The notes: a model not told the origin generated them from the letters alone. A DNA stretch of 64,000 nucleotides from Candidatus Bipolaricaulota bacterium (GCA_035528115.1 DATKZF010000003.1:292651-356650), one strand, 5' to 3'; counted from the first letter of the stretch, positions 16,228 to 57,152 are shown. Translations and numbers: made by a program.

Positions 16228-16320
16228 TTGGGTACAAGATTACAGATAAACACACGAGATTATACAGATTGGAGTTATATCTCGTACAATCTGTACACTA
16301 ATCTGTAATCTCGTAACCTA
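16228..16320 (+). repeat. Palindrome-rich ~70-nt intergenic element (copy 1)
   Basis: cgagattatacagattgg...aatctgtaatctcgtaa. Near-identical copy at 57085..57152. Confidence 0.7.
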
Positions 16321-16325
16321 AAAAT

Positions 16326-17372
16326 ATGCAAACGATTTACATAATCACCACCGTAATTTTCGCGATTCTTTTCATCGCTGCGCTTTTTTATTTTTCAAAA
16401 AAACTAAGCGCGCTCAAGCCCGAAGAAAAAGACGACAAAAGCATGCAGCTTTTGCAAGAGCAATTGAAAGAAATCCGGCAGACCATGGATTACAAGCTGG
16501 GTGAATCTCAAAAACAAATTCAAACGCAATTCGGCCAGAGCGCCAAAATAATTCGGGACGTCACGGAAAAATTGACCAAACTCGACGACACCAATAAACA
16601 AGTGATGGGCTTTGCCGAGCAGCTGCAAAGTCTGGAAAATATTTTAAAAAACCCGAAGCAAAGAGGAATTTTGGGAGAATATTATTTGGAAACTCTTTTG
16701 AAAAACGTTTTCGCGCCCAATCAATATCAATTGCAATACAAATTCACTGACGGAGAAATAGTGGATGCCGTGATTTTCATCAAAGACTATATCATTCCCA
16801 TTGATTCGAAATTTTCACTCGAAAATTACAATAAAATCGTGGAGGAAAAAGATCCGACTCGGCACGAGCAGCTGGAAAAACTTTTCAAACAGGATTTAAA
16901 AAACCGAATCGATGAAACATCCAAATACATCAGGCCTCAAGAAACAACGACTGACTTCGCTTTCATGTTTATCCCGTCCGAAGGAATTTACTACGACCTT
17001 TTGGTCAACCAAGTCGGCGCGGTCAAAGTCAACACGCGCGATCTGATCGAATACGCGTTCAAGGAAAAACATGTGATCATTGTTTCGCCGACTTCATTTT
17101 ACGCGTATTTGCAAACAGTGATTCAGGGCTTGAAAAAAATGCAAATAGAGGAGCAGACCAAGGAAATAATCAAACGCGTGGAAGAACTCAACAAACATAT
17201 CGCGGCTTATGACATGCACATGAAAAAATTGGGCAATAACATCGGCACGACCGTGAACACTTACAATACCGCTTATAAAGAATTCAAAAAAATAGACAAA
17301 GACGTAGTGCGGATTACCGGCAGCGAGCCGGCGATTGATCCGATGGAGATTGATAGGCCGCAGGCAGACTAA
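16326..17372 (+). CDS. rmuC: DNA recombination protein RmuC
   Basis: N-terminal TM, long coiled coil, C-terminal RmuC-like domain. Confidence 0.7.
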   Translation: MQTIYIITTVIFAILFIAALFYFSKKLSALKPEEKDDKSMQLLQEQLKEIRQTMDYKLGESQKQIQTQFGQSAKIIRDVTEKLTKLDDTNKQVMGFAEQLQSLENILKNPKQRGILGEYYLETLLKNVFAPNQYQLQYKFTDGEIVDAVIFIKDYIIPIDSKFSLENYNKIVEEKDPTRHEQLEKLFKQDLKNRIDETSKYIRPQETTTDFAFMFIPSEGIYYDLLVNQVGAVKVNTRDLIEYAFKEKHVIIVSPTSFYAYLQTVIQGLKKMQIEEQTKEIIKRVEELNKHIAAYDMHMKKLGNNIGTTVNTYNTAYKEFKKIDKDVVRITGSEPAIDPMEIDRPQAD

Positions 17373-17590
17373 TAAATCCAGCGGCATCGGTATTGAGGCT
17401 TGAACATTGAAATTCGTTATATCGAAATTCGAAATTGGCTATGGAAATTCGAGGTTCGAGATTCGTTTTAACCGATTTCCGACGTTCTATTTTCTATTAC
17501 TCTTCAGCTTCGCTCAGGACGGACGATTTTTCCTTCTAATTTGTAACCATTTGTAATATTTGTATTGATTTGTAAATTTGTAACCCCAAC

Positions 17591-17619
17591 TTGACAAGGC
17601 CTCAATTCCCCGCTATTAT
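17591..17619 (+). promoter_or_regulatory. Sigma70 promoter TTGACA-17-TATTAT for rpsT
   Basis: Exact -35 hexamer and 17-bp spacer. Confidence 0.65.
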
Positions 17620-17666
17620 ATCAAAAGTCATTATCTTTAATATTCAACCTTAATCTTACAACTGAT

Positions 17667-17945
17667 ATGCCAAATACCAATCAAGGTAAAAAAGAACTGA
17701 GAAAAAGCATCAAGCGATCCAAATTAAATCGCGTCGCTGTGGCAAAAGTTAAAACTTTGAGAAAGAAAACTCTCAAATCAATCGAATCAAAATCGGCCGA
17801 TGCGGAAAAAATGATCAAAGAGACCATTAAAAATATAGACAAGCAAACTCAAAAAGGCAGAATCAAAAAAAACACCGGCTCGAGAATGAAATCAAGGTTG
17901 ATAAAAAACTATAACAAGACCAAAGCCGCGACAGATTCAAAATAA
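17667..17945 (+). CDS. rpsT: 30S ribosomal protein S20
   Basis: KKR...RNK...QKGRIKKNTGSRMKSRL pattern typical of S20. Confidence 0.8.
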   Translation: MPNTNQGKKELRKSIKRSKLNRVAVAKVKTLRKKTLKSIESKSADAEKMIKETIKNIDKQTQKGRIKKNTGSRMKSRLIKNYNKTKAATDSK

Positions 17946-17962
17946 ATTCAATCCAATATAAA

Positions 17963-17992
17963 AAGACCGGCATAAAAGCCGGTTTTTTGTTT
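17963..17992 (+). terminator. Intrinsic terminator of rpsT
   Basis: accggc-ataaaa-gccggt followed by TTTTTTG. Confidence 0.75.
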
Positions 17993-18000
17993 TGATCGCG

Positions 18001-18078
18001 CGGGATGGGCGCATGCCCATCGTAGAGACGCGCCATGGCGCGTCTCTACGCGGCGGCGACCCGCCGCCGACCCGCGCG
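18001..18078. repeat. GC-rich nested palindromic element (copy 1 of 3)
   Basis: gatgggcgcatgcccatc, gtagagacgcgccatggcgcgtctctac, gcggcggcgacccgccgccg. The same core GTAGAGACGCGCC..GGCGCGTCTCTAC occurs at 50172 and 53987. Confidence 0.8.
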
Positions 18079-18081
18079 GTT

Positions 18082-19053
18082 TTACAACCCCATCACAAAC
18101 AAATCCAACAAAAGTTGCGGCGACCAGGAAGTGGATTTGAATTTTTTTTCAATCGATAAAAGCCGGCTGTAAATTTTTTTCAATTCTTCAAAAGTGAATC
18201 TGTCCGCCTGCTGCCAAGTCTTTTTGGCCACGAACGGGTGCAGTTTCAATTCCCTGGCCGCGAATTCCGGCGAACTTGTTCGGCCGCTGTTTTTAACGTC
18301 TTTGATCATCAAAATATTTCTGAATTGCCTGACAATCATGGTCAACAAATAAAATTGATTGGCGCCGCTGCCAAGTTGATCGGCCAAGAGCTTGCCGCTT
18401 AAAGCTTTATTTTTTACTGAAAGCGCGTCCACGAAATCGAAAATATTGTCGTTGAATTTTCCCTTGACCAAATCCTCGACATCTTTGACTGAAATTTCCC
18501 GATTCCGGCAATAGCTCGCCAACTTCTGAATTTCAGCGTCCAGCTGCCACAAATCATTGCCGACCAAAATTGCCAGCCGCTCAGCCGCCGAATTGGCAAT
18601 GGTCCCGCCGACCGAAGCGACTTGTTTTTTTATCCAATCATTTAGCAAAAAACCTTTGGGGCTGGCAAACGATTTTACTTCCGCCAAAGGCGCCTTAGCG
18701 AGCGCTTTGTAAATCTTGCTTCTTTTATCGATTTCGCCTTTTTGGGAAAAAATCACGAAAAATTTTTCCGGCAATTTTTCAACGCTCCCCAAAATCAATT
18801 CTTCTATTTTTTTATCTTGTTTTTTCGCGAAAAAATTTTTCAAAATAATCAATTTATTTTGGCCGAAAAGCGAATCGACCTGCAAAGCGTTCTTTAATGT
18901 TTGTTCGACATTCCCCTTTTCTTCAAAATCTATTTTTAGAATATTAAAATATCCGTATTTGTCTTCAAACAAGGTTGTCCATTTTTGAATTTGTTTTGAA
19001 ATCGCCCAGCCGTTTTCGCCTGACCAGACGTAGATTTGTTTTTTATCAACCAT
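18082..19053 (-). CDS. holA: DNA polymerase III delta subunit
   Basis: HolA-like sequence. The true start is probably MVDKKQIYVW; the upstream extension MQQQEIPAFAGMT is a translated hairpin repeat. Confidence 0.7.
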   Translation of the reverse strand: MVDKKQIYVWSGENGWAISKQIQKWTTLFEDKYGYFNILKIDFEEKGNVEQTLKNALQVDSLFGQNKLIILKNFFAKKQDKKIEELILGSVEKLPEKFFVIFSQKGEIDKRSKIYKALAKAPLAEVKSFASPKGFLLNDWIKKQVASVGGTIANSAAERLAILVGNDLWQLDAEIQKLASYCRNREISVKDVEDLVKGKFNDNIFDFVDALSVKNKALSGKLLADQLGSGANQFYLLTMIVRQFRNILMIKDVKNSGRTSSPEFAARELKLHPFVAKKTWQQADRFTFEELKKIYSRLLSIEKKFKSTSWSPQLLLDLFVMGL

Positions 19054-19075
19054 AATTAGACAATAACCTTTTGTG

Positions 19076-19146
19076 GATTCCCGCTTTCGCGGGAATGACT
19101 GCCGGGAGCGGAACAATGCCCTTTTTGTCATTCCCGCGAAAGCGGG
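19076..19146. repeat. Inverted pair of hairpins attcccgctttcgcgggaat / attcccgcgaaagcgggaat
   Basis: Two perfect 20-nt hairpins in opposite orientation. They generate the FAGMT-type spurious N-terminus. Confidence 0.7.
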
Positions 19147-19173
19147 AATCTCTTGCTGTTGCATTGCTGCTCC

Positions 19174-21900
19174 CTAATACAACTTCTCCAAATCCCTCCA
19201 ATTATCCCCGTAATCGGTTTCGACCGTGATCGGCACGCAGGTTTTGTGGATCTTCTCCATTTTTTCATCGATTATTTTCGCCACTTTTTCCAATTCTTTT
19301 TCCGGCACTTCGAAAACAAGCTCATCGTGAACTTGAAGCAGCATTTTTGTCTCGGGACTGATTTTTTTCAATTCTTTATAAACTTCAATCATGGCGATCT
19401 TTATCAAGTCAGCGGCCGTGCCCTGAATGGGCGTATTGATCGCTTCGCGCTCAGCCGCGGCCTTGATTTGCTGCACGCCCGAATGAATATCCGGGAAATA
19501 TCTTTTTCTGCCGAACATGGTTTCCGTGTAGCCGTTTTCGCGGGCGAATTCTTTGATGCTTTCCATGTATTCTTGAACACGGCTAAATGACCGGTAATAT
19601 TTATCGATAAATTCTTTGGCTCTTTGAATGGAAATGCCGGTTCTGGCCGCCAAACCGTACGCGCCCATGCCGTATAAAATGCCGAAATTAATCATCTTGG
19701 CTTCGCGGCGCATATCTTTGGTGACGTCTTCGAGCTTGACGCCGTGAATTTTGGCCGCGGTTGCCGTATGAATATCATGTCCGGCTTTGAAAATTTCTAT
19801 CATGTTCTCGTCTTTGGCGAGACAAGCGACCACTCGAAGCTCTACCTGGGAATAGTCCGAAGAAACCAGTTTGCTTCCGGGCGCGGCAATAAAAGCTTTT
19901 CTGATTTTCATGCCGAGCGTCGTTCTTTTCGGAATATTTTGCAAATTCGGATCGGAAGAAGACAGCCGTCCCGTGGCCGTGATCGTTTGATTGAAGCTGG
20001 TGTGCACGCGACCGTCCGGCTTGACCAGTCGCGGCAAGGCGTCGATATAAGTGGATTTTAATTTCGTCAATTCGCGATATTCGACTATCAATTCAATGAT
20101 GGCATGCTTGCCCAAAAGTTTTTCCAGCTCCCCGGCTGCGGTCGAAATGCCGGTCTTGGTTTTTTTCAGTCCTTCGGTCGGCAATTTCAATTTTTCGAAA
20201 AAAATCACTTTCAATTGCAACGGCGAATTGATGTTGAATTTTTCACCGGCTTGCTTGTAAATTTTTTTCTCGAGCTCGCCCAGTTTTTCTTCGAATTCTT
20301 CAGACAATTTTTTCAAATATTTCAAATCGAGTAAGACGCCGTTTTTCTCCATTTCCGCCAAAACGTAAATCAAAGGCATTTCCATTTTTTCGAGCAAATC
20401 AAACAGTCCGTTTTCTTTTAATCTCTTCTCCAAAATTTTGTAAATTCGATAAGAAATATCCGCGTCTTCGCAAGAATATTCCGAGACTTTTTCTTTGGCC
20501 ACTTCAAATAAAGATTTTTGTTCTTTGCCTTTGCCGATCAGCTCTTCAATGGCAATCATTTGATGCCCCAGCTCGCGAAACGCCAAATCATTCAAATTGT
20601 GGCCGCGAGATCCGGGATTTAAAAGATACGACGCGATCATGGTGTCGAAATACAACCCTTTGACTTCAAGACCCGCCGCTTCAATCACTTCAAAATCGAA
20701 TTTCAGGTTATGGCCGACTTTTTTTATCTCCTGATTTTTGAAAATGGATTTTAATTTTTCAAACCGCTCTTTGTCGTAAATCACGTAATAAGCTTTGCCC
20801 TCATGCCAAGAAAAGCTGACTCCCAAAAGTTTATTAAAAAAGGGATCCAAGCCATCGGTTTCGGTGTCAAACGCGAAAATATTTTGTTTTTTCAGATCCG
20901 CTAAAAACGACTCGAACTTTTCAGCCGTATCCACCAATCGGTAATCGAGATTTTCTTTGGTTTTGGCAATGACCTTTTCTTCCGTTTGGCCGGCAATCTC
21001 TATTTTTTCCAAACGGTTCATCAATGTTTTAAATTGCAATTTTTGAAACAGTTTGCTCACTTTTTCCAAATCAAAAGGTTTGACCTTGGAATCGGACAAT
21101 TTGAATTTAATCGGCGTGTCTTTGACCAAGGTAACCAATCTTTTACTCTCGAACGCCGCCTTTTTATTTTCTTTCAATAAATTAATCACCCGCGGCTTCA
21201 AGTTTTTCGACTTGGCCGTGTCTTTTTCCAATTCATCATATAAATTTTCCAGAGTGTCGAATTTATTCAGTAAATCAATAGCCGTTTTCTCGCCGATGCC
21301 CGGCACGCCCGGAATATTGTCCGAGGGGTCGCCGCGCAAAGCTTTGTAATCGATCATCTGTTCCGGACCCAAGCCGTTAAATTTTTCCCTGACTTCTTTT
21401 TCATTGTAAGTGATTGTCTCTGAAATTCCCTTATGCAAAGCGTAAACTTTGGTGTTATGGTCAACCAATTGCAAAGCATCCATGTCGCCGGTGACGATTA
21501 TCGACTCGACATCCGGGTTGTCAATGATTTTTCTATTGACCAAAGTGGCGATGATGTCATCGGCTTCATAACCCTTGAGATCGTAATAAGGAATTTTAAA
21601 AACATCCAAAATGTTTTTTACATCATCCAGCTGAGCGTACAATTCATCGGGCTGTTTCACTCTCTGCGCTTTATATTCTTTATACTCAATTTTTCGAAAA
21701 GTCGGTTCGCGCCGGTCAAAGGCCACGGCCAAATAATCCGGTTTCAAATCCGGATAAAGTCTCAGCAAAATCGAAGTAAAGCCGTAAGCGGCATTGATCA
21801 ATTTACCGTCTTCGGTGGTGAGCGGCGGCAAGGCGTGCCAAGCTCGATGCAAGATGGCATTGCCGTCGATAATGACGAATTTTTTCTTTTTTAAAGCCAT
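19174..21900 (-). CDS. polA: DNA polymerase I
   Basis: 5'-3' exonuclease N-terminus and a polymerase domain with DYSQVELRV...HD motifs. Confidence 0.92.
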   Translation of the reverse strand: MALKKKKFVIIDGNAILHRAWHALPPLTTEDGKLINAAYGFTSILLRLYPDLKPDYLAVAFDRREPTFRKIEYKEYKAQRVKQPDELYAQLDDVKNILDVFKIPYYDLKGYEADDIIATLVNRKIIDNPDVESIIVTGDMDALQLVDHNTKVYALHKGISETITYNEKEVREKFNGLGPEQMIDYKALRGDPSDNIPGVPGIGEKTAIDLLNKFDTLENLYDELEKDTAKSKNLKPRVINLLKENKKAAFESKRLVTLVKDTPIKFKLSDSKVKPFDLEKVSKLFQKLQFKTLMNRLEKIEIAGQTEEKVIAKTKENLDYRLVDTAEKFESFLADLKKQNIFAFDTETDGLDPFFNKLLGVSFSWHEGKAYYVIYDKERFEKLKSIFKNQEIKKVGHNLKFDFEVIEAAGLEVKGLYFDTMIASYLLNPGSRGHNLNDLAFRELGHQMIAIEELIGKGKEQKSLFEVAKEKVSEYSCEDADISYRIYKILEKRLKENGLFDLLEKMEMPLIYVLAEMEKNGVLLDLKYLKKLSEEFEEKLGELEKKIYKQAGEKFNINSPLQLKVIFFEKLKLPTEGLKKTKTGISTAAGELEKLLGKHAIIELIVEYRELTKLKSTYIDALPRLVKPDGRVHTSFNQTITATGRLSSSDPNLQNIPKRTTLGMKIRKAFIAAPGSKLVSSDYSQVELRVVACLAKDENMIEIFKAGHDIHTATAAKIHGVKLEDVTKDMRREAKMINFGILYGMGAYGLAARTGISIQRAKEFIDKYYRSFSRVQEYMESIKEFARENGYTETMFGRKRYFPDIHSGVQQIKAAAEREAINTPIQGTAADLIKIAMIEVYKELKKISPETKMLLQVHDELVFEVPEKELEKVAKIIDEKMEKIHKTCVPITVETDYGDNWRDLEKLY

Positions 21901-21912
21901 ATGGTCATTTGA

Positions 21913-22067: not shown

Positions 22068-23735
22068 CTAGTAGTTGCAGAAGTACCCGCCGTCGACCGT
22101 GTCAAACACCGCGTTGATGTTGGGGTACGTGGGCAAAACACACATGACTGCGTGTTCCCCTGGCGAAACGCAAGTCATGAATGGGGTCATCCCGGAAACC
22201 TCGTCCGGAGTGCCCGGATCGATGTACGCCGTAGGCGGGGGAGCCGACGTATTGCTGGTGATGCTCACCCATACCTTACCGGTCAGCGTCTCGCTGATCG
22301 GATCGCTTGACTGGACGTCGAACAACAGCGCTTTGTAATCCACGCAACTCGAATAAAACTCAAACACGTGGATTCCTGGACCAATCGCGATCTGGCAGTT
22401 GCCCGGCAATGTGGAGTTGCAGACCACGGTTCCGTCCAACCGCAGGGTAGACGACGGCTGGGAGGTGATCGGTACGGTCAGGTCTTCTGTGGCCGCGGCG
22501 AACGTCACGTCGAACGTGTTGTTCGTCGCATCGATGAACTCATCGAGAACGACCGGGACGAATCCCCAACTGTTCACGATGACCTCATGCTGTCCTTCCG
22601 GCACCTCCATGGAACATGGCGTGCGGCAGACAGCCGGCTCGTTGTCGATTGACACGACCGCGTCCGTGGGGGTGCTCGTCACCGTCAGGAGAACGGGCAG
22701 CATGGCCTCGAGCATGGCGTCCACGACGTAGTCGTTGTCCAAAAATGACTCAACCGTCTCGTCGTAGTACCCGTCGAGATTGAACACGTACGTATGAGCG
22801 CACGCGGTCTGCTCAACGGCCAGGCATGGAGTCGCTTCGCAAACAACTTCGCCGCCTTCAGTGACGGTCGCGCCGATCGGCTCGGACGTGAAATCGCCAA
22901 CCACGGTCAGCGGCACGAGTGTCACGTTGAACGCGAAGCTCGTTTCCGAGACCATGATCAAGATATCCTCCGAGACGAAGCACCCGGTCAAGTCAATGAT
23001 GTGCACGGTGTGCTGCCCCTCGGTCAGAGAGATCTCTGCCGGCGTATAGTTCGTGACCGTGTCATCATCTACTCGGAAATAGACTCCGATCGGCTCGGAC
23101 GTGATAGTCACGACCACCACGATCGGCGCAATGTCCGGCTGAACATCGACAGGAACCACGTCCACGGCCATGTCAACCGGCACATCCGGCTGCACGTCAG
23201 CCGGCACGTCCTCGGCCACGTCGATTAGCACGTCCGGCTGCACGTCGACCGGCGCGTCCTCGATCACGTCGGGCGTCACCTCCGGCTGAACTTCGGCCAA
23301 CGCGTCCTCGATCAGATCGACCGGAACGTCCGGCTGAACATCGACCGGAACATCTTCCACCAACTCCGGCGGAACGTCCGGCTGAACTTCGACCGGAATG
23401 TCCTCGACCACCTCGAGCGGCACATCCTCCGCCACTTCTACCGGAATGTCCTCGACCAGCTCGGCCGGCACATCCCGCGCGACGTCGAGCGGATGGAGAT
23501 CTCGCATGGGCCTGCTGTCAGCCTCTGCGTCTTCTTCCATGTCCGGAACGGTGGCGTCCTCCTTGATGTCCGGCAAGCGCGGGATGTCGGTGATGACCTC
23601 GAGGAAGTCCCCTCCGAAATCATGAGCCATTGCATCTTCCGTTTCGACCAGGCTCGGGCCGACCGTGGCCTCACTACCGCAAGCGGCGAAGAAAAGGCCG
23701 ACAAAAACAAAAAGAACAAATTGTCTCGGACTCAT
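22068..23735 (-). CDS. Secreted acidic-repeat lipoprotein with about five PEGA-like domains, GC-rich island 3
   Basis: RBS AGGAGGA-7-ATG; signal peptide plus lipobox-like FAACGS; about 120 aa of (E/D)DVPV(D/E)VQPDVP tandem repeats; repeated ITSEP..G..V..DG...G.TP..EGQH blocks. About 62% GC. Confidence 0.7.
   Translation of the reverse strand: MSPRQFVLFVFVGLFFAACGSEATVGPSLVETEDAMAHDFGGDFLEVITDIPRLPDIKEDATVPDMEEDAEADSRPMRDLHPLDVARDVPAELVEDIPVEVAEDVPLEVVEDIPVEVQPDVPPELVEDVPVDVQPDVPVDLIEDALAEVQPEVTPDVIEDAPVDVQPDVLIDVAEDVPADVQPDVPVDMAVDVVPVDVQPDIAPIVVVVTITSEPIGVYFRVDDDTVTNYTPAEISLTEGQHTVHIIDLTGCFVSEDILIMVSETSFAFNVTLVPLTVVGDFTSEPIGATVTEGGEVVCEATPCLAVEQTACAHTYVFNLDGYYDETVESFLDNDYVVDAMLEAMLPVLLTVTSTPTDAVVSIDNEPAVCRTPCSMEVPEGQHEVIVNSWGFVPVVLDEFIDATNNTFDVTFAAATEDLTVPITSQPSSTLRLDGTVVCNSTLPGNCQIAIGPGIHVFEFYSSCVDYKALLFDVQSSDPISETLTGKVWVSITSNTSAPPPTAYIDPGTPDEVSGMTPFMTCVSPGEHAVMCVLPTYPNINAVFDTVDGGYFCNY
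23093..23480. repeat. Tandem ~24-bp coding repeats (acidic DVPVDVQP array)
   Basis: cgtccggctgaacttcgaccggaa-like units iterated about 15 times. Confidence 0.75.
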
Positions 23736-32464: not shown

Positions 32465-32541
<77 letters not shown>

Positions 32542-32631
32542 GCCTTCGCTAAAGCTTCGGCTGGCAGGCCAACTTTTAGAAATCGGTCCGATTCATCGGG
32601 ACTCCAAAATTTTTCACTTTTAACTTTTTAC

Positions 32632-32708
32632 GGGCGTGTAGCTCAGTTGGTTAGAGCGCAGCACTGATAATGCTGAGGTCATAGGTTCGATTCCTATCAC
32701 GCCCACCA
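32632..32708 (+). tRNA. tRNA-Ile (GAT)
   Basis: Anticodon loop ctgataa. Confidence 0.85.
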
Positions 32709-32774
32709 GCCTTCGCTAAAGCTTCGGCTGGCAGGCCATAAGATGCTTGCCCGACAAAGCCTTGGCGAAGTCGG

Positions 32775-32849
32775 GCCAGGTTAGCTCAGTGGTAGAGCGA
32801 AGGACTGAAAATCCTTGCGTCCCCAGTTCAATTCTGGGACCTGGCACCA
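32775..32849 (+). tRNA. tRNA-Phe (GAA)
   Basis: Anticodon loop ctgaaaa. Confidence 0.85.
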
Positions 32850-32960
32850 TTCGACTCGCCCTCGGTGCCACTCGGGCTCGCTCATGGTGTGCCACCACCT
32901 GAATGTACGAAGTGAGGCGAGTGCCCTGAGTTTATGGAAGGGTTTTTTTATTTTTGTTTG
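32850..32960 (+). repeat. tRNA 3'-trailer element (class 1) copy
   Basis: TTCGACTCG...CTCGCTCATGGTGTGCCACCACCTG...GAGGCGAGTGCCCTGAG followed by a terminator-like hairpin and T-run. Confidence 0.7.
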
Positions 32961-33025: not shown

Positions 33026-33102
33026 CGGGGTGTGGCGCAGTTGGCTAGCGCGCTTGCTTTGGGAGCATGAGGCCGTGGGTTCGAGTCCCACCACCCCGAC
33101 CA
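33026..33102 (+). tRNA. tRNA-Pro (TGG)
   Basis: Anticodon loop tttggga with one mismatch in the anticodon stem; acceptor CGGGGTG. Confidence 0.75.
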
Positions 33103-33162
33103 GCCTTCGCTCCTCCTCGCTCCGCTCGTCGGGGCTTCGGCTGGCGGGCCAGCCAAAAAAAT

Positions 33163-33420
33163 ATGCAAAACCATTTAAAATATTTTGTTTATATAGCACA
33201 AAGTTTAATTAAAGATGATGAATTTTATAAGGGATATTCAGTTGATATTGACGAAAGATTGATTAAGCATAATTTAGGATTATCCAAGCATACTGCAAAA
33301 TATAAACCATGGAAAATTATATTTTATTGCGCTCTTAGCAATAGAGAAAAAGCTATCGCTTTTGAGAAATATCTTAAATCCGGATCAGGAAGGGCTTTTG
33401 CCAAAAAAAGATTCATATAA
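33163..33420 (+). CDS. GIY-YIG nuclease superfamily protein (UPF0213/YhbQ-like, 85 aa)
   Basis: YFVYIAQSL...GYSVDIDERL...KYL.SGSG pattern. Confidence 0.6.
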   Translation: MQNHLKYFVYIAQSLIKDDEFYKGYSVDIDERLIKHNLGLSKHTAKYKPWKIIFYCALSNREKAIAFEKYLKSGSGRAFAKKRFI

Positions 33421-40439: not shown

Positions 40440-40680
40440 ATTACGATATGTCCTGGGTCATGGATCACGTAACAATGAAGCATCGTTACTAATTACATTC
40501 ACTAAAAAGCTCTTTATTTGTATTGTTACAAATTACATTCATCAATGGCTTTAAACCTGAGAATCTTGTAATTAGTAACAAATTACCTAAAAGCTAAATA
40601 GTCGATTGTAATTCGTAACAGAAAGCTAAATAGAATCTTGTAATTCGTAACAAACCAATTATACAATTAATATTATAGCC
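40440..40680. repeat. Repeat region A of the TTGTAATTCGTAACA family, with about 2.5 tandem ~36-bp units
   Basis: Imperfect inverted copy of 56380..56600; tandem units aaagctaaatag..cttgtaattcgtaaca. Confidence 0.7.
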
Positions 40681-50171: not shown

Positions 50172-50213
50172 GGCCGCCGTAGAGACGCGCCGCGGCGCGT
50201 CTCTACGGCGGCC
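50172..50213. repeat. 42-bp perfect GC-rich palindrome (copy 2)
   Basis: ggccgccgtagagacgcgccgcggcgcgtctctacggcggcc. Confidence 0.85.
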
Positions 50214-50252: not shown

Positions 50253-51755
50253 ATGTCTCTTTTCTGGCAAACTATCATTGTTTTTTGTATCTCCTTGTTT
50301 TTATTTTCCCTGACCCAATTTCCCCACACGTTCTATGACCCGGACGGATTTTATCACGCCAAAATTTCCGAAACGATCGCCGAGCGCGGCCTTGTCAAAT
50401 CTTTTCCCTGGACGCAATTCGCCACGCTCAAAGACGGCTTTGTCGATCATCACCTCGGATTTCATCTGCTGATCGCGCCGCTAACCAAAATCTTCCCCTC
50501 GGAATACGCGCTCAAACTGGGCAACCTTTTCATCAATTCCGCTTTTGTCTCCGTATTTTTTCTTTTCCTCAAAAAAAATAAAATAAAATACTCCTGGCTG
50601 TTCACTTCATTTTTATTTCTAACCGCTCCGCTTTACGCCAGACTGAGCATGAATAAAGCCATTGGGTTGGCCCTGCTTTTGCTGATGTTTTTTATCTGGG
50701 CGCTTATGGCTGAAAAAAAATGGCCGTTGTTTTTCATCAGCGCTCTTTTTGTCTGCAGTTATGGCGGCTGGCCGATAAGCATTATCGTTTTAATTTGCTA
50801 TATCGTTGCCAGAATTCTTTTCCAAATAGTGGAAAATAAAAAAATGGATAAGAAATTAAAAAATCATTTACTCGGCGCCGCCTGCTTGACTTTGGCCGGA
50901 CTGGCGGCGGGCCTGGTGATCAATCCATATTTTCCGCAAAATCTGAATTTTTATTGGCAGCAAGTGGTTCAAATCGGCCTGATCAATTATCAAAATCAGC
51001 TCAACGTGGGCTCGGAATGGCTGCCTTATGATTTCATTACTTTGGCGGCCGGCACTTTTTTCCTCTGGGGCATTTTGATTTTTTCGCTGAAAGCGATTAT
51101 GGATCAAAAAGCAAAACTTAATTGGCGACACATTTTTCTGACCTTCTCTTTTATCATCTTTTTCGCCGTCACTTTGAAGTCGCGAAGGTATATCGAATAT
51201 TTCGCGCCATTTTTTATTCTCTACATCGCTTTTTTATCCCGTGAATTGGATTTGAAAAAATTGCTGGGAGGCCTCGGCGTCAAAATGAAATGGTTTTGCC
51301 TGTCTTTGACCGCTTTGTTGGCCGGACTGATCCTCGCCAATTTCAGCTCGACCATCCAAATATTTCAAACCAAGCACTCCGTTGACAAATTCAGCGGCGC
51401 CGCGGCTTGGCTGGCTGAAAACACGGCCGAAGGGTCAATTGTTTTTCACACCGATTGGGATGATTTTCCCATGCTGTGGTTTCACAATGACCGCAATTAT
51501 TATATCGGCGGCCTGGATCCGACATTCACCTATTTATTCAACCCGGAATTGTCGAAAAAATGGATGAGCATCTCTTCGGGCAGCCAAGCGGACGAACTTT
51601 ATCTAATAATTAAAAACGATTTTCAGGCAAACTATGTCTTTGTGGAGAAAAACAATCACGCGCTTTTTTTAAACAATTTGGAAAATAACTTTTTGGCTGA
51701 AAAAAAATTCGAAGACGCTGAAAGCGCAATTTTTCACCTTAAAAACAACGATTGA
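50253..51755 (+). CDS. Polytopic membrane protein, GT-C glycosyltransferase-like
   Basis: Multiple TM helices; start chosen at MSLFWQ. Confidence 0.5.
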   Translation: MSLFWQTIIVFCISLFLFSLTQFPHTFYDPDGFYHAKISETIAERGLVKSFPWTQFATLKDGFVDHHLGFHLLIAPLTKIFPSEYALKLGNLFINSAFVSVFFLFLKKNKIKYSWLFTSFLFLTAPLYARLSMNKAIGLALLLLMFFIWALMAEKKWPLFFISALFVCSYGGWPISIIVLICYIVARILFQIVENKKMDKKLKNHLLGAACLTLAGLAAGLVINPYFPQNLNFYWQQVVQIGLINYQNQLNVGSEWLPYDFITLAAGTFFLWGILIFSLKAIMDQKAKLNWRHIFLTFSFIIFFAVTLKSRRYIEYFAPFFILYIAFLSRELDLKKLLGGLGVKMKWFCLSLTALLAGLILANFSSTIQIFQTKHSVDKFSGAAAWLAENTAEGSIVFHTDWDDFPMLWFHNDRNYYIGGLDPTFTYLFNPELSKKWMSISSGSQADELYLIIKNDFQANYVFVEKNNHALFLNNLENNFLAEKKFEDAESAIFHLKNND

Positions 51756-53362
51756 ATCAAATGACCAAAAACATTTCGCAAATTATCAAAAGTTTTTCAA
51801 AAAAAGACTGGCTCTGTCTGTCTATTATTTCTTTGGTTTTGATTGCGATCGTTTCAATTACCTATATTTTCGGTTTGACTTCATCTGATGCCGATCATAT
51901 TTTCAACGGACGGCGCGCCACATCTCCCGGAGACACCTCGGTTTATTTTTCATACATCAATCAAGCGAAACAAGGCGACGGTTTTTTCATCAATCAATTC
52001 ACTTCCGAAAAAGACGAACTTAAAGTCTTCAATATCTTCTGGCTGATGGCCGGCAAATTCGCGGCCGTTTTCCGCCTGTCCGCGCCGGCAACCATGCTGG
52101 CGCTAAAAATTTTACTGGCGCCGATTTTTGTTTTATTTTGCTATGTCTTTTTGAGTTTGTTTTTTGAAAATAAACGCGTAAAGCGCCTCGCGCTGATTCT
52201 GATTTCATTTTCTTCCGGAGTCGGGCTTTGGTTCGGTTTTCTGAATGGAGAGCAAAATACTTTTTTGAAAGCGCCGATCGATCTGTGGGTGACGGAAAGT
52301 AATTTTTTCACTTCGTTTTTGCACTCGCCGCATTTCATTTTGGCCTGGACATTGCTTTTGATCGTTTTTTCTTTTTTCATTTTGGCCGTTCGAAACAATA
52401 ATTGGAAACAAAGCTTTCTGGCCGGCCTGACCGCGCTTTTTCTCTTTCAATTTCATCCCTATAATTTTCTGACGGTTTACGCGGTCTGCCTGACTTTCAC
52501 GATTTATGAAATTTTTCTTAAAAAAACATGGCGACCTTCGGTCCACTTTTTACTTCTGACCGTTGTTTCCGTTCCTTCCGTAATTTATCATTTTTTCACG
52601 CTTTCCGACACTCTCATCGCCGCGCGTTCCGCTCAAAACATCACCCTGACTCCCCCGCTCATTTACGTGGCTTTGGGCTTTGGAATATTTTTCCCTTTGG
52701 CGATTTGGGGCGTTTGGAAAATTTTCAAAAACAACATGGAAGACAAATATATTTTCCTTGTCATCTGGCTGTTGGTCGGTTTATTGCTGATATATTTTCC
52801 GGGTTTTCAATTTCAACGGCGCTTGCTTTTGGGTCTTCAAATTCCGATAATCATGTTGGCTTTCATCGGTCTTGGAAATTTCGTTGAAAAAACGGCTGAC
52901 AAAATAAAACGATCCAAACTGTCCGCCATGATCGCCGTGTATTTGGCCATGATTTTTATTTTGCCGACCTCTTTTTACCACCTTGCTTCCGATTTTTTAT
53001 ATTATTTCAATCACGAGCCTCTTTTCTATCAAACGTCCGAGCAAAAAAAAATCATTGAAGCAATAGAAGCGGACAATGGCCCGGTCAATATCATTATCTG
53101 CGAAGACATTCCTTTCGCCAATACTTTGCCGATTTATTTGCCGAATAAAATTTTTCTGGCTCACCTTCATGAAACGACTTTTTTCGAAAACAAAAAAAGC
53201 CTGCAAGCAAACTTTTTCAATCAAGCGATGACGCCGCTCGATGCTGAAAATTTTATTCGGAACAATTTTATCGAATATGTCATTTCAAAAAAACCGCTGC
53301 CTTATAATTTTCTGGAACCGATTATTGGCGGAGAAAAATATTTCTTATATCGAGTCAATTGA
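51752..53362 (+). CDS. Polytopic membrane protein, GT-C glycosyltransferase-like
   Basis: Multiple TM helices; 4-bp overlap with the upstream gene. Confidence 0.5.
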   Translation: MNQMTKNISQIIKSFSKKDWLCLSIISLVLIAIVSITYIFGLTSSDADHIFNGRRATSPGDTSVYFSYINQAKQGDGFFINQFTSEKDELKVFNIFWLMAGKFAAVFRLSAPATMLALKILLAPIFVLFCYVFLSLFFENKRVKRLALILISFSSGVGLWFGFLNGEQNTFLKAPIDLWVTESNFFTSFLHSPHFILAWTLLLIVFSFFILAVRNNNWKQSFLAGLTALFLFQFHPYNFLTVYAVCLTFTIYEIFLKKTWRPSVHFLLLTVVSVPSVIYHFFTLSDTLIAARSAQNITLTPPLIYVALGFGIFFPLAIWGVWKIFKNNMEDKYIFLVIWLLVGLLLIYFPGFQFQRRLLLGLQIPIIMLAFIGLGNFVEKTADKIKRSKLSAMIAVYLAMIFILPTSFYHLASDFLYYFNHEPLFYQTSEQKKIIEAIEADNGPVNIIICEDIPFANTLPIYLPNKIFLAHLHETTFFENKKSLQANFFNQAMTPLDAENFIRNNFIEYVISKKPLPYNFLEPIIGGEKYFLYRVN

Positions 53363-55094
53363 TCTTAAGCGGTTCGGTCAAATTTTCTATTTTTGAAAAA
53401 TTATTTTCGACGAAATATAAATTGTTCAAATACAAGCCGCCTTCGACTTCAACCGAATAGGCAAAAATTTCAGCGTCTTTTTCCCGCGAAACCGTCAATT
53501 CATCAGTAAACGGCCAAAACAGCCGTTTTTTTATGGTTTTCCCATCAATTTGATATTCAATCAGCATGGGCTTTTTATCTTCGCTTGCCTCAAAATTTTC
53601 AAGGTTGATTTTTACAAAATTAGCCTCATCAAAGGCAACCTCCTGTCCCGATTTTCCGTAAATCAAATATCTGTCTTTATTTTCCAGCAAAACAAGGCCG
53701 TTTTTTTTGATTTTTTCCAGCAACTCATCGCCACCGCTAGAATAATATTTTTGATAATACGGCCGATTGTCTTTTTGCAAATAAAAAGTCAGCAATTCGT
53801 CCTGATCAATGATCAAGTAATCCAACCCGGGCGTCTCGTATTTTTGATCGGAAAATTGTCGGTGGCCCCAAAAAATTCTGGTCGTTGAATAGACAACGTT
53901 TTTTTCGGACAAATAAACGGCCAAAGACGCGGGCGCGGCTACAATGGAATTTTCAATGGCCGTGGCCGGCGGCGCCGCCGCCGCCGTAGAGACGCGCCGC
54001 GGCGCGTCTCTACCCGCCCGCGCGAACGCGGGCGGCCACGGCCCGAAAAACCAATTTAAATAAATAATGGCCGCGATCAAAACAAACGGCGCCATTTTTT
54101 TGTAGGCGTTAAAAATAAAAATTTTGCCCGGCCGGTCATTTTTTAAAACCTCGATCAAAGCCAAATAGCAGGGAATAAAAAGCGGCGCGCCATAATGCAG
54201 ATTGGCGACCGGCGCGCCGAAGGCCAAGGCGATTTGCAAATAATAAAAAAGGCCGATAACCAGATATCTGGGACGCAGGAGCGGCAAAAAAACCAACGGC
54301 AAGAAAATCTGCACCAAAAGCTCCAGTTGTCCGAGGCTGAAAACGCGGCCAAGAACCGTGTGCCAATCAAAATAGACCAAAAATTTGCTGGCCTCGCCGT
54401 TAAAATGCTTTATCGTCAGCCAACCGATAATTAAAAACAATAGACTAGAAAAAATAGTCGTCAAAACCTTGGGAAAAAACAAGGCTTTTTGGAAACCGAC
54501 AATCCTTCTTTTTTCCAAAAAGATAAACAGAGCAAAGCCGAGTAGCAAAATTCCCATATCTTCCCTGATCAGCAAAGTCAAAAACAAAAAAACATAATAA
54601 CCGGCTTGATTGTTTTCAAGATAAAAATAGTACAGCCAAAAAAAGAAAAAGAACAAAAACGGCAAAAAGTGAAATTCGAACAAGTTCATGCCGATGATGA
54701 ACGGATTGAATAAATAGGCGATCAAAACCAAAATTGTTTTATTGAAATTTAAACTCTTTCGACAAATCAAATACAACGGCCAAGCTCCGAGGCCGATAAA
54801 CAACGTTTGCAAAAAGAGCAACAAAATCGGTGATTGTAAAAAATGATACAGCGGATAAAATATAAAAAACAAAAAGCTGAAATGGTCCGCAAAATACTGC
54901 GCTCCCTGCAAAGGCACGAACAAAAAATTGCCCGCGTCAAGACTTTGGAACGCCTGAAAAAAAATGGTCAAGTCAAGACCGTTATAAAGATGGTTGTGAT
55001 ATTTGAAAAGGCAAACCGAAAAAACAGCGGCCACGTAAACCGTGATTGAGCAAATTAGAATCACTTTGCGTTTCATATGACTTAATGATATCAA
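53355..55094 (-). CDS. Polytopic membrane protein (DUF2079-like) carrying an in-frame GC palindrome insertion
   Basis: N-terminal TM bundle; palindromic element at 53961..54040 encodes GRDAPRRVSTAAAAPPATA in frame. Confidence 0.5.
   Translation of the reverse strand: MISLSHMKRKVILICSITVYVAAVFSVCLFKYHNHLYNGLDLTIFFQAFQSLDAGNFLFVPLQGAQYFADHFSFLFFIFYPLYHFLQSPILLLFLQTLFIGLGAWPLYLICRKSLNFNKTILVLIAYLFNPFIIGMNLFEFHFLPFLFFFFFWLYYFYLENNQAGYYVFLFLTLLIREDMGILLLGFALFIFLEKRRIVGFQKALFFPKVLTTIFSSLLFLIIGWLTIKHFNGEASKFLVYFDWHTVLGRVFSLGQLELLVQIFLPLVFLPLLRPRYLVIGLFYYLQIALAFGAPVANLHYGAPLFIPCYLALIEVLKNDRPGKIFIFNAYKKMAPFVLIAAIIYLNWFFGPWPPAFARAGRDAPRRVSTAAAAPPATAIENSIVAAPASLAVYLSEKNVVYSTTRIFWGHRQFSDQKYETPGLDYLIIDQDELLTFYLQKDNRPYYQKYYSSGGDELLEKIKKNGLVLLENKDRYLIYGKSGQEVAFDEANFVKINLENFEASEDKKPMLIEYQIDGKTIKKRLFWPFTDELTVSREKDAEIFAYSVEVEGGLYLNNLYFVENNFSKIENLTEPLKIN
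53961..54040. repeat. GC-rich nested palindromic element (copy 3), located inside a CDS
   Basis: ggccgtggcc...gccgtagagacgcgccgcggcgcgtctctac...ccgcccgcgcgaacgcgggcgg...ggccacggcc. Confidence 0.8.
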
Positions 55095-55155
55095 ACATCA
55101 ACCAAACAAAAAAGCGCCCGCCAAAGACGGAACGCTTTCTTTTTCGCTTTCGTTA

Positions 55156-55572
55156 TTAAGCTCCCAAAGTCACATTGACCAATTCACCGACCACATAACT
55201 GGAAATGGCATAAGCCAACAAAACGATGACCAAGCCGATGATGCCGTTGATGATCCAGTCTTTGGCTTTTTTAACCTTTTCATCGGCTCCGCCGGCGGTC
55301 ATGTACAAAAAGCCTCCGTACAAGATGACCACGAGCAAAATAATGCCCATGAAAGTCAAAACGATTCTGATGATGTCGCCGATCACTACCGGCAAAGATC
55401 TTGACTCCGCTCCGAACTGATCGCCCGTCGTTCCCAATGTCCCGATAATGTCAGGCGTGCCCGCGGCGCCGGTGCTGTCGGCTAAAACCACTGCCGGCGT
55501 AACCAGCAACGCGATGGTTGCGAGCGCCAGTAAAGCCGGGACGAATTTTTTCAATGAAATTTTCGTACGCAT
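55156..55572 (-). CDS. VirB2/TrbC-like pilin-family protein (paralog 1)
   Basis: Signal peptide; two hydrophobic helices separated by the YMTAGG loop; KVKKAKDWIINGIIGL. Confidence 0.6.
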   Translation of the reverse strand: MRTKISLKKFVPALLALATIALLVTPAVVLADSTGAAGTPDIIGTLGTTGDQFGAESRSLPVVIGDIIRIVLTFMGIILLVVILYGGFLYMTAGGADEKVKKAKDWIINGIIGLVIVLLAYAISSYVVGELVNVTLGA

Positions 55573-55610
55573 AAATTTTTTAATTTATTGATATTTAAGT
55601 TAATTTTATT

Positions 55611-56000
55611 TTATGCCGCCGGGGGCAAACTGCCGCCCGTCGCTTCAATCATGCTTCTTACCACATAGTCTGAGATGGCGTAAGCCGATAGTACTATCGC
55701 TAAGCCGATCATGGCATTGATAATCATTTCCTTAGCTTTTTTTACCTGATTTGCATCCCCGCCGGCAGTCATCCACATGATGCCCGCATAAATTAATAAT
55801 AATAGTAAAATTACACCCAGCAAAGTCAAGATCACTCTAATTATTCTGCCCACGATGACCGCGATGCTCTCGGACTGAAGCCCTGCCTGATCGGCGGTTT
55901 GTTCTAATCCGGTCGCAATGGCCAGGGTTGGCTGAACGCAACTTGAAAAAAATATAATCGCCACGGACAATATAGTTATAATATATAAAAAATGATTCAT
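55611..56000 (-). CDS. VirB2/TrbC-like pilin-family protein (paralog 2)
   Basis: Signal peptide; IYAGIMWMTAGG; KKAKEMIINAMIGL. Confidence 0.6.
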   Translation of the reverse strand: MNHFLYIITILSVAIIFFSSCVQPTLAIATGLEQTADQAGLQSESIAVIVGRIIRVILTLLGVILLLLLIYAGIMWMTAGGDANQVKKAKEMIINAMIGLAIVLSAYAISDYVVRSMIEATGGSLPPAA

Positions 56001-56005
56001 ATTTA

Positions 56006-56374
56006 CTATGTTATACCTCCAGGCTGAATCTGCGAAAAAATATATTTTAGTATAGCATATGAAGCCAGCACTAAAATCAAACCAATTATCCCGTTAATTA
56101 TTATTGTTCTGGCTTTTTGCACTTTGGATTTAGCCCCCACTTGCAGGGTTATTGATCCGCCGGCGGTCATCCACAAAACTCCGCCGTAAATAATCATAAC
56201 CAAAAAAAGTACTCCAACAAATCCCAATGCATAATTCAAGATATTGCCGATAATTTCAGGCAACGCCTTGTCCGTCTGCAATTCCGCCTGACCCGCCGCC
56301 GTATTCAGTCCTTCTTGCAAGGCGCCGGCTTTGGCGCAGGAAATACCGACTAGTTCTTTTATCCATTGTCTCAT
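56006..56374 (-). CDS. VirB2/TrbC-like pilin-family protein (paralog 3)
   Basis: IIYGGVLWMTAGG; QKARTIIINGIIGL; no clear signal peptide. Confidence 0.55.
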   Translation of the reverse strand: MRQWIKELVGISCAKAGALQEGLNTAAGQAELQTDKALPEIIGNILNYALGFVGVLFLVMIIYGGVLWMTAGGSITLQVGAKSKVQKARTIIINGIIGLILVLASYAILKYIFSQIQPGGIT

Positions 56375-56379
56375 ATCGG

Positions 56380-56600
56380 TTACAAATTTACAAATCTTTT
56401 ACTAATGCACAAATTGTTACACGCTATATGTTACGAATTACAATATCCTATTTAACTTTCAGGTTATTTGTTACTAATTACAAGATTCTCAGGCTTAAGG
56501 CTATAGGTGAATGTCCCAATGGGATCACTTCGTGATACTTCGTAACAATACAAATAAAGAGCCATTTAGTGAATGTAATTCGTAACATCTTCTCGATTCA
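56380..56600. repeat. Repeat region B of the TTGTAATTCGTAACA family (inverted relative to region A)
   Basis: Reverse complement aligns to 40485..40600. Confidence 0.7.
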
Positions 56601-56675
56601 GCCATCTACAAAGATAAATGACTGAACCAAGAAGGGCAGAGTTTCCCAGCTGGGACGCAAACCCTGCCTCCTCTT

Positions 56676-57056
56676 TTATTCCGCGATTGTGGCTGAAACC
56701 AAGGAATTGATGACGAAAGTGGTAATGGCATATGCGGCCAAGATAATGGCCAAACCGATAATGCCGGAGATAAGCCACTGTCTGGCTGCCGTGACCTTTT
56801 CATCGCTGCCTCCGGCGGTCATGTATTTGAAGCCGCCGATTAAAACGATGACAATAGCCACCACACCCAAAAATCCCAACGCCGCTTTGATGATATCTCC
56901 GATCACTTCTCTTAAATCTCGAGTTGAATAACCAACGCTGTTTTCAATCGCGTTGAATCCGAAATCGATTTGAGCTGAAGCGAGCAAAGGCACGGCCGCC
57001 ATGAAAAGAACGGCCAATACCATGGTAGCGGTAGTAAACTTTTGAATTTTGTTCAT
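56676..57056 (-). CDS. VirB2/TrbC-like pilin-family protein (paralog 4)
   Basis: Signal peptide; LIGGFKYMTAGG; ARQWLISGIIGL. Confidence 0.6.
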   Translation of the reverse strand: MNKIQKFTTATMVLAVLFMAAVPLLASAQIDFGFNAIENSVGYSTRDLREVIGDIIKAALGFLGVVAIVIVLIGGFKYMTAGGSDEKVTAARQWLISGIIGLAIILAAYAITTFVINSLVSATIAE

Positions 57057-57084
57057 ATTTTTTATTACAAGATTACGAAATTTG

Positions 57085-57152
57085 CATACGAGATTGTACG
57101 GATTGGAATTATCTCGTATAATCTGTACACAAATCTGTAATCTCGTAAAAAC
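57085..57152 (+). repeat. Palindrome-rich ~70-nt element (copy 2)
   Basis: acgagattgtacggattgg...aatctgtaatctcgtaa, about 85% identical to 16248..16320. Confidence 0.7.

Follow-up and report, generated by a model that had tools for sequence, protein, structure and literature searches.

A palindromic repeat in the rmuC leader and a pilin spacer is probably a foldback-like mobile element shared among Patescibacteria

What is a short, palindrome-rich sequence that stands twice in the intergenic DNA of one bacterial contig, once ahead of rmuC and once between two pilin genes? The question is raised by a 64,000-nt stretch of a genome labelled Candidatus Bipolaricaulota bacterium (GCA_035528115.1, DATKZF010000003.1:292651-356650; the whole stretch is hereafter the window, and positions are counted from its first letter), in which an earlier note had proposed a small structured RNA or an operator array. 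Our analysis leads to a different answer—the two copies are probably a new non-autonomous element, similar to MITEs (miniature transposable elements with inverted repeats) and foldback elements, from a family spread across a clade of Patescibacteria. Two observations are central here. First, the sequence recurs at dispersed places, has inverted arms at its ends, and is inserted relative to the orthologous spacers of relatives, and second, the same arm layout occurs at unrelated loci of other genomes, where the cores differ. Dispersal, inverted arms, filled and empty sites, a variable core, the lack of an open reading frame (ORF), free orientation, and TA ends together make up the signature of a MITE, and it is on this signature that we base the assignment. 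The two copies, here called A and B, are as follows:

16233-16315, plus strand: copy A, whole element, 83 nt, 33% G+C, in the rmuC 5' leader
57066-57147, plus strand: copy B, whole element, 82 nt, between two pilin genes

That the element is present twice, as first reported, proved correct, although its limits had to be redrawn; the bounds given at the time (16248-16320 and 57085-57152) left out the first two units, TACAAGAT-TACAGAT, and the true limits lie further left. As direct repeats separated by 40.8 kb, the copies are identical at 71 of 83 positions (86%), with flanks that pairwise alignment shows to be unrelated. Left arms (30/38 identical positions) and right arms (35/37) differ in their divergence (79% vs 95% identity), though not significantly (Fisher p = 0.086). 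The similarity itself is well beyond background: blastn aligned the copies to each other at E = 5e-13 over a 63-nt core, and nhmmer recovered them at E = 3e-29 and 8e-27, with the next-best match in the window at E = 3. The 16-mer AATCTGTAATCTCGTA, allowing up to three mismatches, had five matches against 0.42 expected, and a density of at least four AGATT/AATCT per 100 nt was reached in the 64 kb only at the two copies (background, 0.27 per 100 nt). No third copy was found in the window or in ~14 kb of additional flank from the source genome (~78 kb in total). The element is poorer in G+C than the window as a whole (33% vs 45%), and no ORF of at least 60 aa starts inside either copy. At 82-83 nt and non-coding, both copies fall within the usual size limit of MITEs (under about 500 bp); the elements of relatives measure 108-180 nt.

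Each copy consists of two inverted arms of ~37 nt round a centre of 7-9 nt, which can be divided as follows:

16233-16269, plus strand: copy A left arm, with TACAAGAT at 16233-40, TACAGAT at 16241-47, cACGAGAT at 16253-60, and TACAGAT at 16263-69
16270-16278, no strand: copy A centre or loop, TGGAGTTAT
16279-16315, plus strand: copy A right arm, with ATCTCGTA at 16279-86, ATCTGTA at 16289-95, ATCTGTA at 16301-07, and ATCTCGTA at 16308-15
57066-57103, plus strand: copy B left arm, with TACAAGAT at 57066-73, TACGAAAT at 57074-81, TACGAGAT at 57087-94, and TACGGAT at 57097-103
57111-57147, plus strand: copy B right arm, with ATCTCGTA at 57111-18, ATCTGTA at 57121-27, ATCTGTA at 57133-39, and ATCTCGTA at 57140-47

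The internal inverted repeats noticed earlier are thus real (inverted pairs I1-I4 were found) and are built from eight TACRAGAT units per copy, four forward and four reverse, some of them shortened to the 7-mer TACAGAT. In copy A, the layout reads TACAAGAT TACAGAT aaacac ACGAGAT ta TACAGAT, then the centre tggagttat, then ATCTCGTA ca ATCTGTA cacta ATCTGTA ATCTCGTA, and unit starts are spaced 8, 12, 10, 16, 10, 12, and 7 nt. The 37-nt arms form terminal inverted repeats, and ten such arms from the family can be aligned with one another; all five family elements have TA at the start and TA at the end. The whole element folds into one long imperfect hairpin, both as RNA (-29 to -36 kcal/mol, z -6 to -10 vs shuffles) and as DNA (about -14 kcal/mol, z -4.2 to -4.7 vs shuffles). 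Within the right arm, hexamers resembling a -10 box (TACAAT at 16285-90 in copy A, TATAAT at 57117-22 in copy B) follow 17-18 nt after TATACA and TTGTAC, respectively; as outward promoters, these are weak candidates that we offer as leads only.

Filled and empty versions of the same site were found for three places, namely the spacer between the second and third pilin genes (pilin2-pilin3), the rmuC leader, and the leader of a DUF2079 gene (loci fetched from relatives are designated by L numbers). In three syntenic relatives (L109, L111, and L112/L113), the pilin2-pilin3 spacer is 42-93 nt long and lacks the element, with both flanks kept—AAAAGGTCGA on one side and AAAAAATATGAACAAAATT on the other. 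When the element is taken out of the source spacer and one TA is kept, what is left (GGTCGA-ATAAATTTAGTTTTTAATAAAAAAT-ATG) belongs to the same length class as the spacers of the relatives and resembles CTTTTTATTAAAATAAAAAAAT of L112; likewise, the predicted empty site TTTTTAAT resembles L112's TTTTTATT. At rmuC, a TACRAGAT element occupies the leader of the source and of L029 only, at the same position in these two non-sister lineages, and that of L029 comprises six forward and four reverse units over 111 nt. The leader of L024/L030 is plain, 27 nt long, and element-free, those of L034, L022, and L114 hold unrelated direct arrays instead, and those of L027/L028/L115 hold a different palindrome. 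Because the nearest relatives by RmuC lack the element—the source protein is closest to that of element-free L022 (92% identity), and the L029 protein is 95% identical to those of element-free L024/L030 and 94% identical to that of element-free L034—the distribution at this locus is patchy. The element in the DUF2079 leader, found in L113, is absent there in L021, L109, and L111.

As an observation in its own right, the promoter-to-ATG stretch of rmuC is hypervariable, and among lineages whose RmuC proteins are 86-97% identical, the arrays found there are unrelated or missing altogether. Across the sites compared (L022 9956-9994, L114 758-784, L034, L027/L028/L115, L033, L040, L045, and L036), we saw CATTACT, CCAATTA, CAAT-rich, and TTCATGC arrays, AATTTC, TAAGGG, and CCCTTAC palindromes, and a perfect GC hairpin; the leaders of L027 and L028 are exactly one 7-nt unit apart.

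Two direct copies 40.8 kb apart might also be taken for attL and attR, the borders of a 41-kb integrated prophage or island, an idea to which we assign next to no probability. It is refuted by the gene content of the interval, which holds 16S rRNA, seven tRNAs, polA, SMC, penicillin-binding protein, and ribosomal protein genes and no integrase. Moreover, the interval shows no compositional break, the repeats differ by indels and match at only 86%, and each is a self-contained palindrome; in GCA_049319825.1, the rmuC and pilin loci lie on different large contigs, and both are element-free. Integron attC sites were rejected as well, as the ends read TACAAGAT ... ATCTCGTA rather than RYYYAAC ... 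GTTRRRY and the window has no integrase.

Is the repeat confined to this genome? A clustered-unit scan over ~1 Mb of related Patescibacteria DNA yielded three further arrays (in L113, L045, and L022), two of which count among the complete elements and have these coordinates in the respective loci:

5723-5902 of L113: element in the DUF2079 leader, with four forward units, a ~95-nt core, and four reverse units
7705-7802 of L045: element 16 nt upstream of a TrmB-family helix-turn-helix (HTH) gene, bounded by GGCGC/GCGCC and made up of three forward and four reverse units

The ten arms of five elements share one layout, that is, unit, 0-1 nt, unit, 4-6 nt, unit, 1-2 nt, unit, and in their alignment, nearly all unit positions are invariant while the spacers are free. 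The cores, on the other hand, range from 7 to ~95 nt and are mutually unrelated. Family elements start about 4-8 nt past a -10 box in three or four of the five cases and end 7-16 nt before an ATG. The earlier note had held that a lack of additional copies or conservation in relatives, together with the lack of a transcript, would refute it, and on the first of these points the outcome is mixed; members were in fact found in L029, L045, L113, and partly L022, although conservation at the same locus was not, the members being located at other loci or present in one relative and absent from another at a single locus. Since loci differ or presence is patchy, this is the pattern of a mobile repeat rather than that of a conserved regulator.

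These same arms bear on the proposal of an operator array. On that proposal, TACRAGAT units would be sites for a clade-conserved host DNA-binding protein (a regulator or nucleoid protein), acting as roadblock or looping operators past promoters, with a regulon of rmuC, a pilin gene, DUF2079, and the TrmB-like regulator, and with copies duplicated or recruited from a mobile element. We find this doubtful, though parts of it have merit: repeated short sites that a protein could bind are a fair description of invariant units with variable spacers. Unit starts at ~0, 8-9, 21-22, and 31-32 are kept in all ten arms, among lineages whose RmuC is only 74-88% identical, and every family member is preceded by a -10 box and followed by a start codon. 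One element stands directly upstream of the TrmB-family HTH gene, which would allow for autoregulation, and related motifs (TTACAAAT arrays and GTTACNAATTAC) occur in other intergenic regions of the window. On the contrary, the element is absent at the orthologous promoters of very close relatives, where a regulon site should persist, and this patchy presence and absence speaks against rmuC or the pilin gene having a conserved operator. No candidate regulator was found, the irregular unit spacing is unlike that of phased operators such as omega heptads, and copying of a whole cassette irrespective of orientation would still require a mechanism of mobility. Nor is there a general AAGAT-type motif downstream of 141 promoter-like sites; TACAAGAT itself was not enriched past these sites and was rejected as a general promoter-downstream element.

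Searches beyond these relatives returned little, and some of their results weigh against a mobile family. Exact-pattern scans, with strict patterns, found only tandem AATCTGTAATCTCG 14-mers in public genome contigs (in metagenome-assembled genomes (MAGs) of Gracilibacteria and 'Opitutus') and nothing in metagenome contigs, hence no further full copy in either; both public collections evidently did not contain the source genome. Annotated phage and plasmid records gave no match. Viral contigs with the 16-mer AATCTGTAATCTCGTA were dismissed as chance (15 matches, all isolated), and those with two TACAAGAT in tandem were uninformative (at least 120 matches, compared with 96 and 82 for composition-matched tandem 8-mer controls). 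Separately, the Gracilibacteria MAG JANNCQ01 (L002 2820-2912, L001 7222-7264) carries AGATT-core heptads in a foldback arrangement, (TAGATTT)x5, 20 nt, (AATCTGT AATCTCG)x2, and a similar tandem is present in an Opitutus-binned contig (L003).

The surroundings of the two copies are as follows:

16199-16227, plus strand: rmuC promoter, sigma70-like, TTGCGA-17 nt-TG-extended TAAAAT (TTGCGA-17-TGgTAAAAT)
16326-17372, plus strand: rmuC coding sequence, downstream of copy A (Pfam RmuC, 1.4e-55)
56676-57056, minus strand: type IV secretion system (T4SS)-type pilin gene, 126 aa, downstream of copy B
57185-57973, minus strand: gene for a 262-aa T4SS-type pilin, upstream of copy B in the direction of transcription

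The context first described for the repeat—promoter-proximal, upstream of rmuC, and between two pilin genes—is correct. Copy A starts 5 nt past the -10 box of a promoter that is kept in relatives with and without the element, and it stops 10 nt short of the rmuC ATG (16326); the neighbouring gene on its left is divergent, encodes 105 aa, and is served by a promoter of its own to the left of the element. Copy B ends 9 nt upstream of a pilin start codon (57056), in a conserved cluster of a solute-binding protein, six pilins, and DUF2079; the flanking pilins are of the VirB2/TrbC type (T4SS_pilin, PF18895) and are not type IV pilins. Relative to the downstream gene, copy B is inverted with respect to copy A (against the profile, copy B scores 89 bits on the plus strand and 19 bits on the minus strand), and in the family more broadly, copy A and the L029 element face one way and copy B and the L113 element the opposite way.

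A selected RNA structure could take the form of a 5' stem-loop protecting rmuC mRNA from decay that depends on the 5' end, a structure between the pilin cistrons that stabilises their transcript or marks it for processing, or a small RNA. With z-scores of -6 to -10, the hairpins stand out for their stability, and they would begin at or within a few nucleotides of the predicted transcription start; folding leaves the A-rich stretch and AUG downstream of the hairpin unpaired in both leaders. In addition, rmuC and the third pilin gene lack a Shine-Dalgarno sequence, even though the 16S rRNA ends CACCUCCUUUC, with a CCUCC tail. Several findings nevertheless make this explanation very unlikely in our view. 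The copies lie opposite to one another relative to transcription, so that the two transcripts would be mutual complements, and it is the minus strand that gives the more stable RNA fold in both, whichever strand is transcribed. In copy A, the spacers have not been kept complementary and form a 15-nt internal loop, while the units persist. The structure is not conserved at orthologous sites, being absent from most of the corresponding spacers of close relatives, has no U-tract, and belongs to no Rfam family: at gathering threshold, Rfam 15 gave nothing at either copy, and at E <=1 only eukaryotic miRNA-hairpin matches of 16-27 bits appeared, where thresholds are 72-101 bits. Finally, regions upstream of rmuC are no more structured than others (40 vs 286, Mann-Whitney p = 0.67). 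In view of the missing Rfam match, the opposite orientations, and the absence from relatives, the discrete structured RNA suggested at the outset is not supported.

Other candidates were also rejected. Sensing by RmuC of palindromes in its own leader does not fit the frequencies of structured upstream regions (z < -3 in 17.5% for rmuC vs 22% of 286 others), and an intrinsic terminator does not fit sites that have no U-tract or terminator-like sequence at either copy and are A-rich downstream. For the centre, a CsrA-type GGA loop and a LexA-type GTAC-N-GTAC box were dropped, with copy B transcribed from the other strand and the spacing a misfit.

A single unit also occurs apart from the two copies, in the leader of a tRNA gene:

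14467-14474, plus strand: tRNA-Leu leader, a solo TACAAGAT unit lying 8 nt past the -10 box TATAAT, in a local hairpin

This unit may be a relic of the TACRAGAT family. The orthologous tRNA-Leu leader of L022 has about five such units, in degenerate form (5274-5314). They are part of a longer arrangement in that lineage (5250-5460), where the leader, 75 nt long in the source, is a ~230-nt chain of the successive blocks GATTGCT, TACAAGAT-type, GATTGTT, GAAATGT, GAAAGAC, and GAGACAC, with a partly complementary, G·U-rich tail after it.

Short tandem arrays of this kind are a general property of the related DNA and bring up the question of whether the element could have arisen in place. A tandem-repeat census of the window and L022-L115 (923 kb, dereplicated) counted 63 arrays of period 7, compared with 8, 13, 16, and 22 for periods 5, 6, 8, and 9, such that period-7 arrays outnumber those of each other period 3- to 8-fold. 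Thirty-three of the 63 are upstream of genes, often stopping 1-14 nt short of a start codon or 5 nt short of a mature tRNA. Their units are lineage-specific, mostly G-poor, and differ between close lineages, the arrays having nothing in common even where proteins are 94-97% identical. In the window, a perfect (TTTCATG)x14 at 62404-62501 separates a promoter (TTGATT-17-TGcTATAAT) from tRNA-Ser, whose 5' end is at 62507, and falls inside the pre-tRNA leader. In addition, (GAAATTC)x8 follows rmuC and five ATTTGTAA(c) units with ~9-10-nt spacing stand directly upstream of the rpsT -35 box (17409-17465, 17539-17585), and a 19-mer, TTACAAATTTACAAAT, is shared between the rpsT upstream region and 56378-56396, just upstream of a pilin gene.

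Against this background, replication slippage and inverted duplication might have produced the element locally, with the second copy made by rare ectopic copying, in which case it would be neither mobile nor functional. Heptanucleotide arrays do dominate the tandem repeats of related DNA, over half of them upstream of genes, and the unrelated arrays in rmuC leaders of lineages with 86-97% identical RmuC, the one-unit difference between L027 and L028, the chain of differing heptad blocks with TACAAGAT units in the L022 tRNA-Leu leader, and a TA-AAGA-like sequence past the rmuC -10 box in several element-free lineages all speak for such an origin. We nonetheless judge it unlikely: slippage cannot place the same 83-nt composite, spacers and centre included, 40 kb away between conserved flanks, and it leaves unexplained why arms with one four-unit layout recur round different cores, at four unrelated loci of different genomes. 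A further alternative, that the TACRAGAT arrays are not selfish and instead belong with fast-evolving arrays of 7-8-nt units, often in forward and reverse sets, that lie in the few dozen nucleotides from promoter to start codon or mature tRNA 5' end and serve as tunable, contingency-like expression modules or else as operator cassettes to which a DNA- or RNA-binding protein specific to the clade attaches, seems to us similarly improbable. The TACRAGAT unit itself is kept across lineages at different loci. If this alternative were true, it would point to an undescribed habit of Patescibacteria of placing arrays in leaders.

If the element is MITE- or foldback-like, as we favor, its history and effects can be sketched. 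The units would be binding sites of a transposase encoded elsewhere, in the manner of transposon ends with several sites, and insertion would have taken place at a TA dinucleotide in A/T-rich DNA, with duplication of the TA. In such compact genomes, the position between promoter and start codon may reflect the only place where insertion is tolerated, rather than targeting. Once transcribed, the element would set a hairpin of -26 to -40 kcal/mol 7-16 nt ahead of the start codon, at the very beginning of the rmuC mRNA and, in the mRNA of the pilin operon, between two cistrons; by analogy with Correia and ERIC elements, such a hairpin could alter mRNA stability or processing, or the element could add a weak outward promoter (TAYAAT).

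Several points weigh against this account. No transposase or autonomous partner with the same arms was found among the window proteins by Pfam (about 40 were scanned or listed), in the gene tables of the fetched loci, or in the ~1 Mb unit-cluster scan of relatives. Only two copies are present in ~78 kb of the source genome, whose total number of copies may be very low, and at 14% divergence, they show no sign of recent activity. As every unit starts with TA, a TA duplication at the ends is inseparable from the unit's own TA, and a target duplication of greater length is not visible. The same genomes are rich in fast-evolving leader arrays that are plainly not transposons, and part of the architecture of the element could have arisen in place. 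Lastly, its shared position in the source and L029 could reflect common ancestry with repeated loss, not mobility.

Should the MITE-like assignment hold, mobile DNA would still be reshaping the very short regulatory regions of minimal, largely insertion sequence-poor genomes, and it would have set a strong hairpin before a recombination gene and within a pilin operon. The case is also a cautionary one for the discovery of RNA motifs and operators in MAGs, given that a structured intergenic repeat can be an insertion rather than a conserved regulator. The octamer-array arms provide a simple search model for the missing transposase. Patescibacteria, or the candidate phyla radiation (CPR), go unmentioned in a 2024 review of prokaryotic MITEs and in a 2024 survey of 183,232 genomes, and a full-text literature search for MITEs together with 'candidate phyla radiation' returned a single paper, on an unrelated matter.

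The window contains other repeats and features of interest. A second dispersed intergenic repeat of ~160 nt is present at 56428-56588, in the spacer between the third and fourth pilin genes, and, inverted, at 40485-40652, upstream of the SMC gene, with the copies 90-93% identical. Its ends form a terminal inverted repeat of 15 nt, ATGTTACGAATTACA, and it contains GTTACNAATTAC / AATCTTGTAAT motifs similar to TACRAGAT; its 40.6-kb copy includes a 32-nt tandem duplication, and the pilin3-pilin4 spacers of relatives are much shorter. This repeat is probably another MITE. Around the tRNA genes, a trailer of ~88 nt, 77% identical, follows the 3' ends of tRNA-Leu and tRNA-Phe (14615-14702, 32844-32931), CCAGCCTTCGCT is shared past tRNA-Val, Ile, and Pro (32507-32550, 32674-32717, 33068-33111), and a stand-alone ORF for an 85-aa GIY-YIG nuclease (33166-33420; Pfam 8.9e-13) lies between tRNA-Pro and tRNA-Gly. 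A 393-aa protein (782-1963) has a C-terminal Cas_csx3 domain (1.7e-19), and no CRISPR array was noticed in the window. Coding repeats with a 48-nt period occur both in a 571-aa PEGA-domain protein (23157-23487) and in a lysine/alanine-rich ORF of 100 aa with no Pfam match (7937-8239, minus strand; repeats at 8075-8201).

The source organism itself deserves comment. Homologues of the RmuC and pilins of the window belong to Patescibacteria, Falkowbacteria and similar, identical proteins are encoded on ENA ERZ27256828:k141_4005742 (438 kb) and on a 763-kb NCBI contig with the Bipolaricaulota label, and 16S is unlinked from 23S-5S. The window comes from a MAG. Because all close homologues, and likewise its T4SS-type pilin arrays and unlinked rRNA genes, indicate Patescibacteria, the label 'Candidatus Bipolaricaulota' is probably a mis-assignment.

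How does the element compare with known systems? Heptad operators of the kind bound by the omega repressor of plasmid pSM19035, a small ribbon-helix-helix (RHH) dimer that binds cooperatively to arrays of 7-bp direct and inverted repeats, form contiguous arrays that cover the promoter or precede it, whereas here 7-8-nt units with irregular spacers follow the -10 box; with no RHH gene adjacent, an omega-type operator was rejected. REP, BIME, and REPIN sequences are similar in being short intergenic palindromes that form hairpins of ~100 nt as inverted doublets and can stabilise upstream mRNA, but REPs are G+C-rich, have a conserved GTAG/CTAC head and a RAYT gene nearby, and reach copy numbers in the tens to hundreds. 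Membership in the REP/REPIN-RAYT group was likewise rejected, as the element has 33% G+C, TACRAGAT ends, and no GTAG head, and no Y1_Tnp was found in the scanned window proteins. A different, G+C-rich palindrome of the window, CGTAGAGACGCGCC..GGCGCGTCTCTACG, does have GTAG/CTAC heads and is REP-like, occurring three times in gene-end regions (18021-18050, 50172-50213, 53986-54013). ERIC/IRU, RUP, and BOX elements are imperfect palindromes of ~100-130 nt in transcribed intergenic DNA that vary in presence and affect mRNA decay (PMC10969869; PMC3184786). They have no sequence relation to the present element, and those families lack octamer-array arms.

Closer in design are transposon ends with multiple sites, as in the inverted repeat/direct repeat (IR/DR) ends of Tc1/mariner elements (Sleeping Beauty, Tc3), the multiple terminal repeats of IS21, the ends of Tn7 and Mu, and eukaryotic foldback elements. 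As in these, the arms of the element consist of short direct repeats that are inverted between the ends, and its TA ends are compatible with the TA target of the IS630-Tc1-mariner group, a likeness only. The known ends differ in that their repeats are 12-30 bp over 50-250 bp, as opposed to four 8-bp units in 37 nt, and in that no transposase is linked to the element here.

By analogy, the closest precedent appears to be the Correia elements of Neisseria (CREE/NEMIS), which duplicate a TA target and, like the element described here, have TA at both ends. The two differ in sequence, to which no similarity extends, and in phylum, in the single 26-bp inverted repeats of Correia elements vs the four tandem octamers here, and in copy number (>100 per genome vs 2 in 78 kb). 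What they have in common is a length of ~100-150 nt, A/T-richness, terminal inverted repeats, and no ORF, as well as long mRNA hairpins and -10-like hexamers (PMC10969869). Correia elements are orphan MITEs with no known cognate transposase, and for the element here, none was found in the window or in ~1 Mb of relatives. Correia elements are also found immediately upstream of genes, one of them just downstream of the mtrCDE promoter, and they contribute built-in promoters and inverted repeats at which RNase III cuts (PMC10969869).

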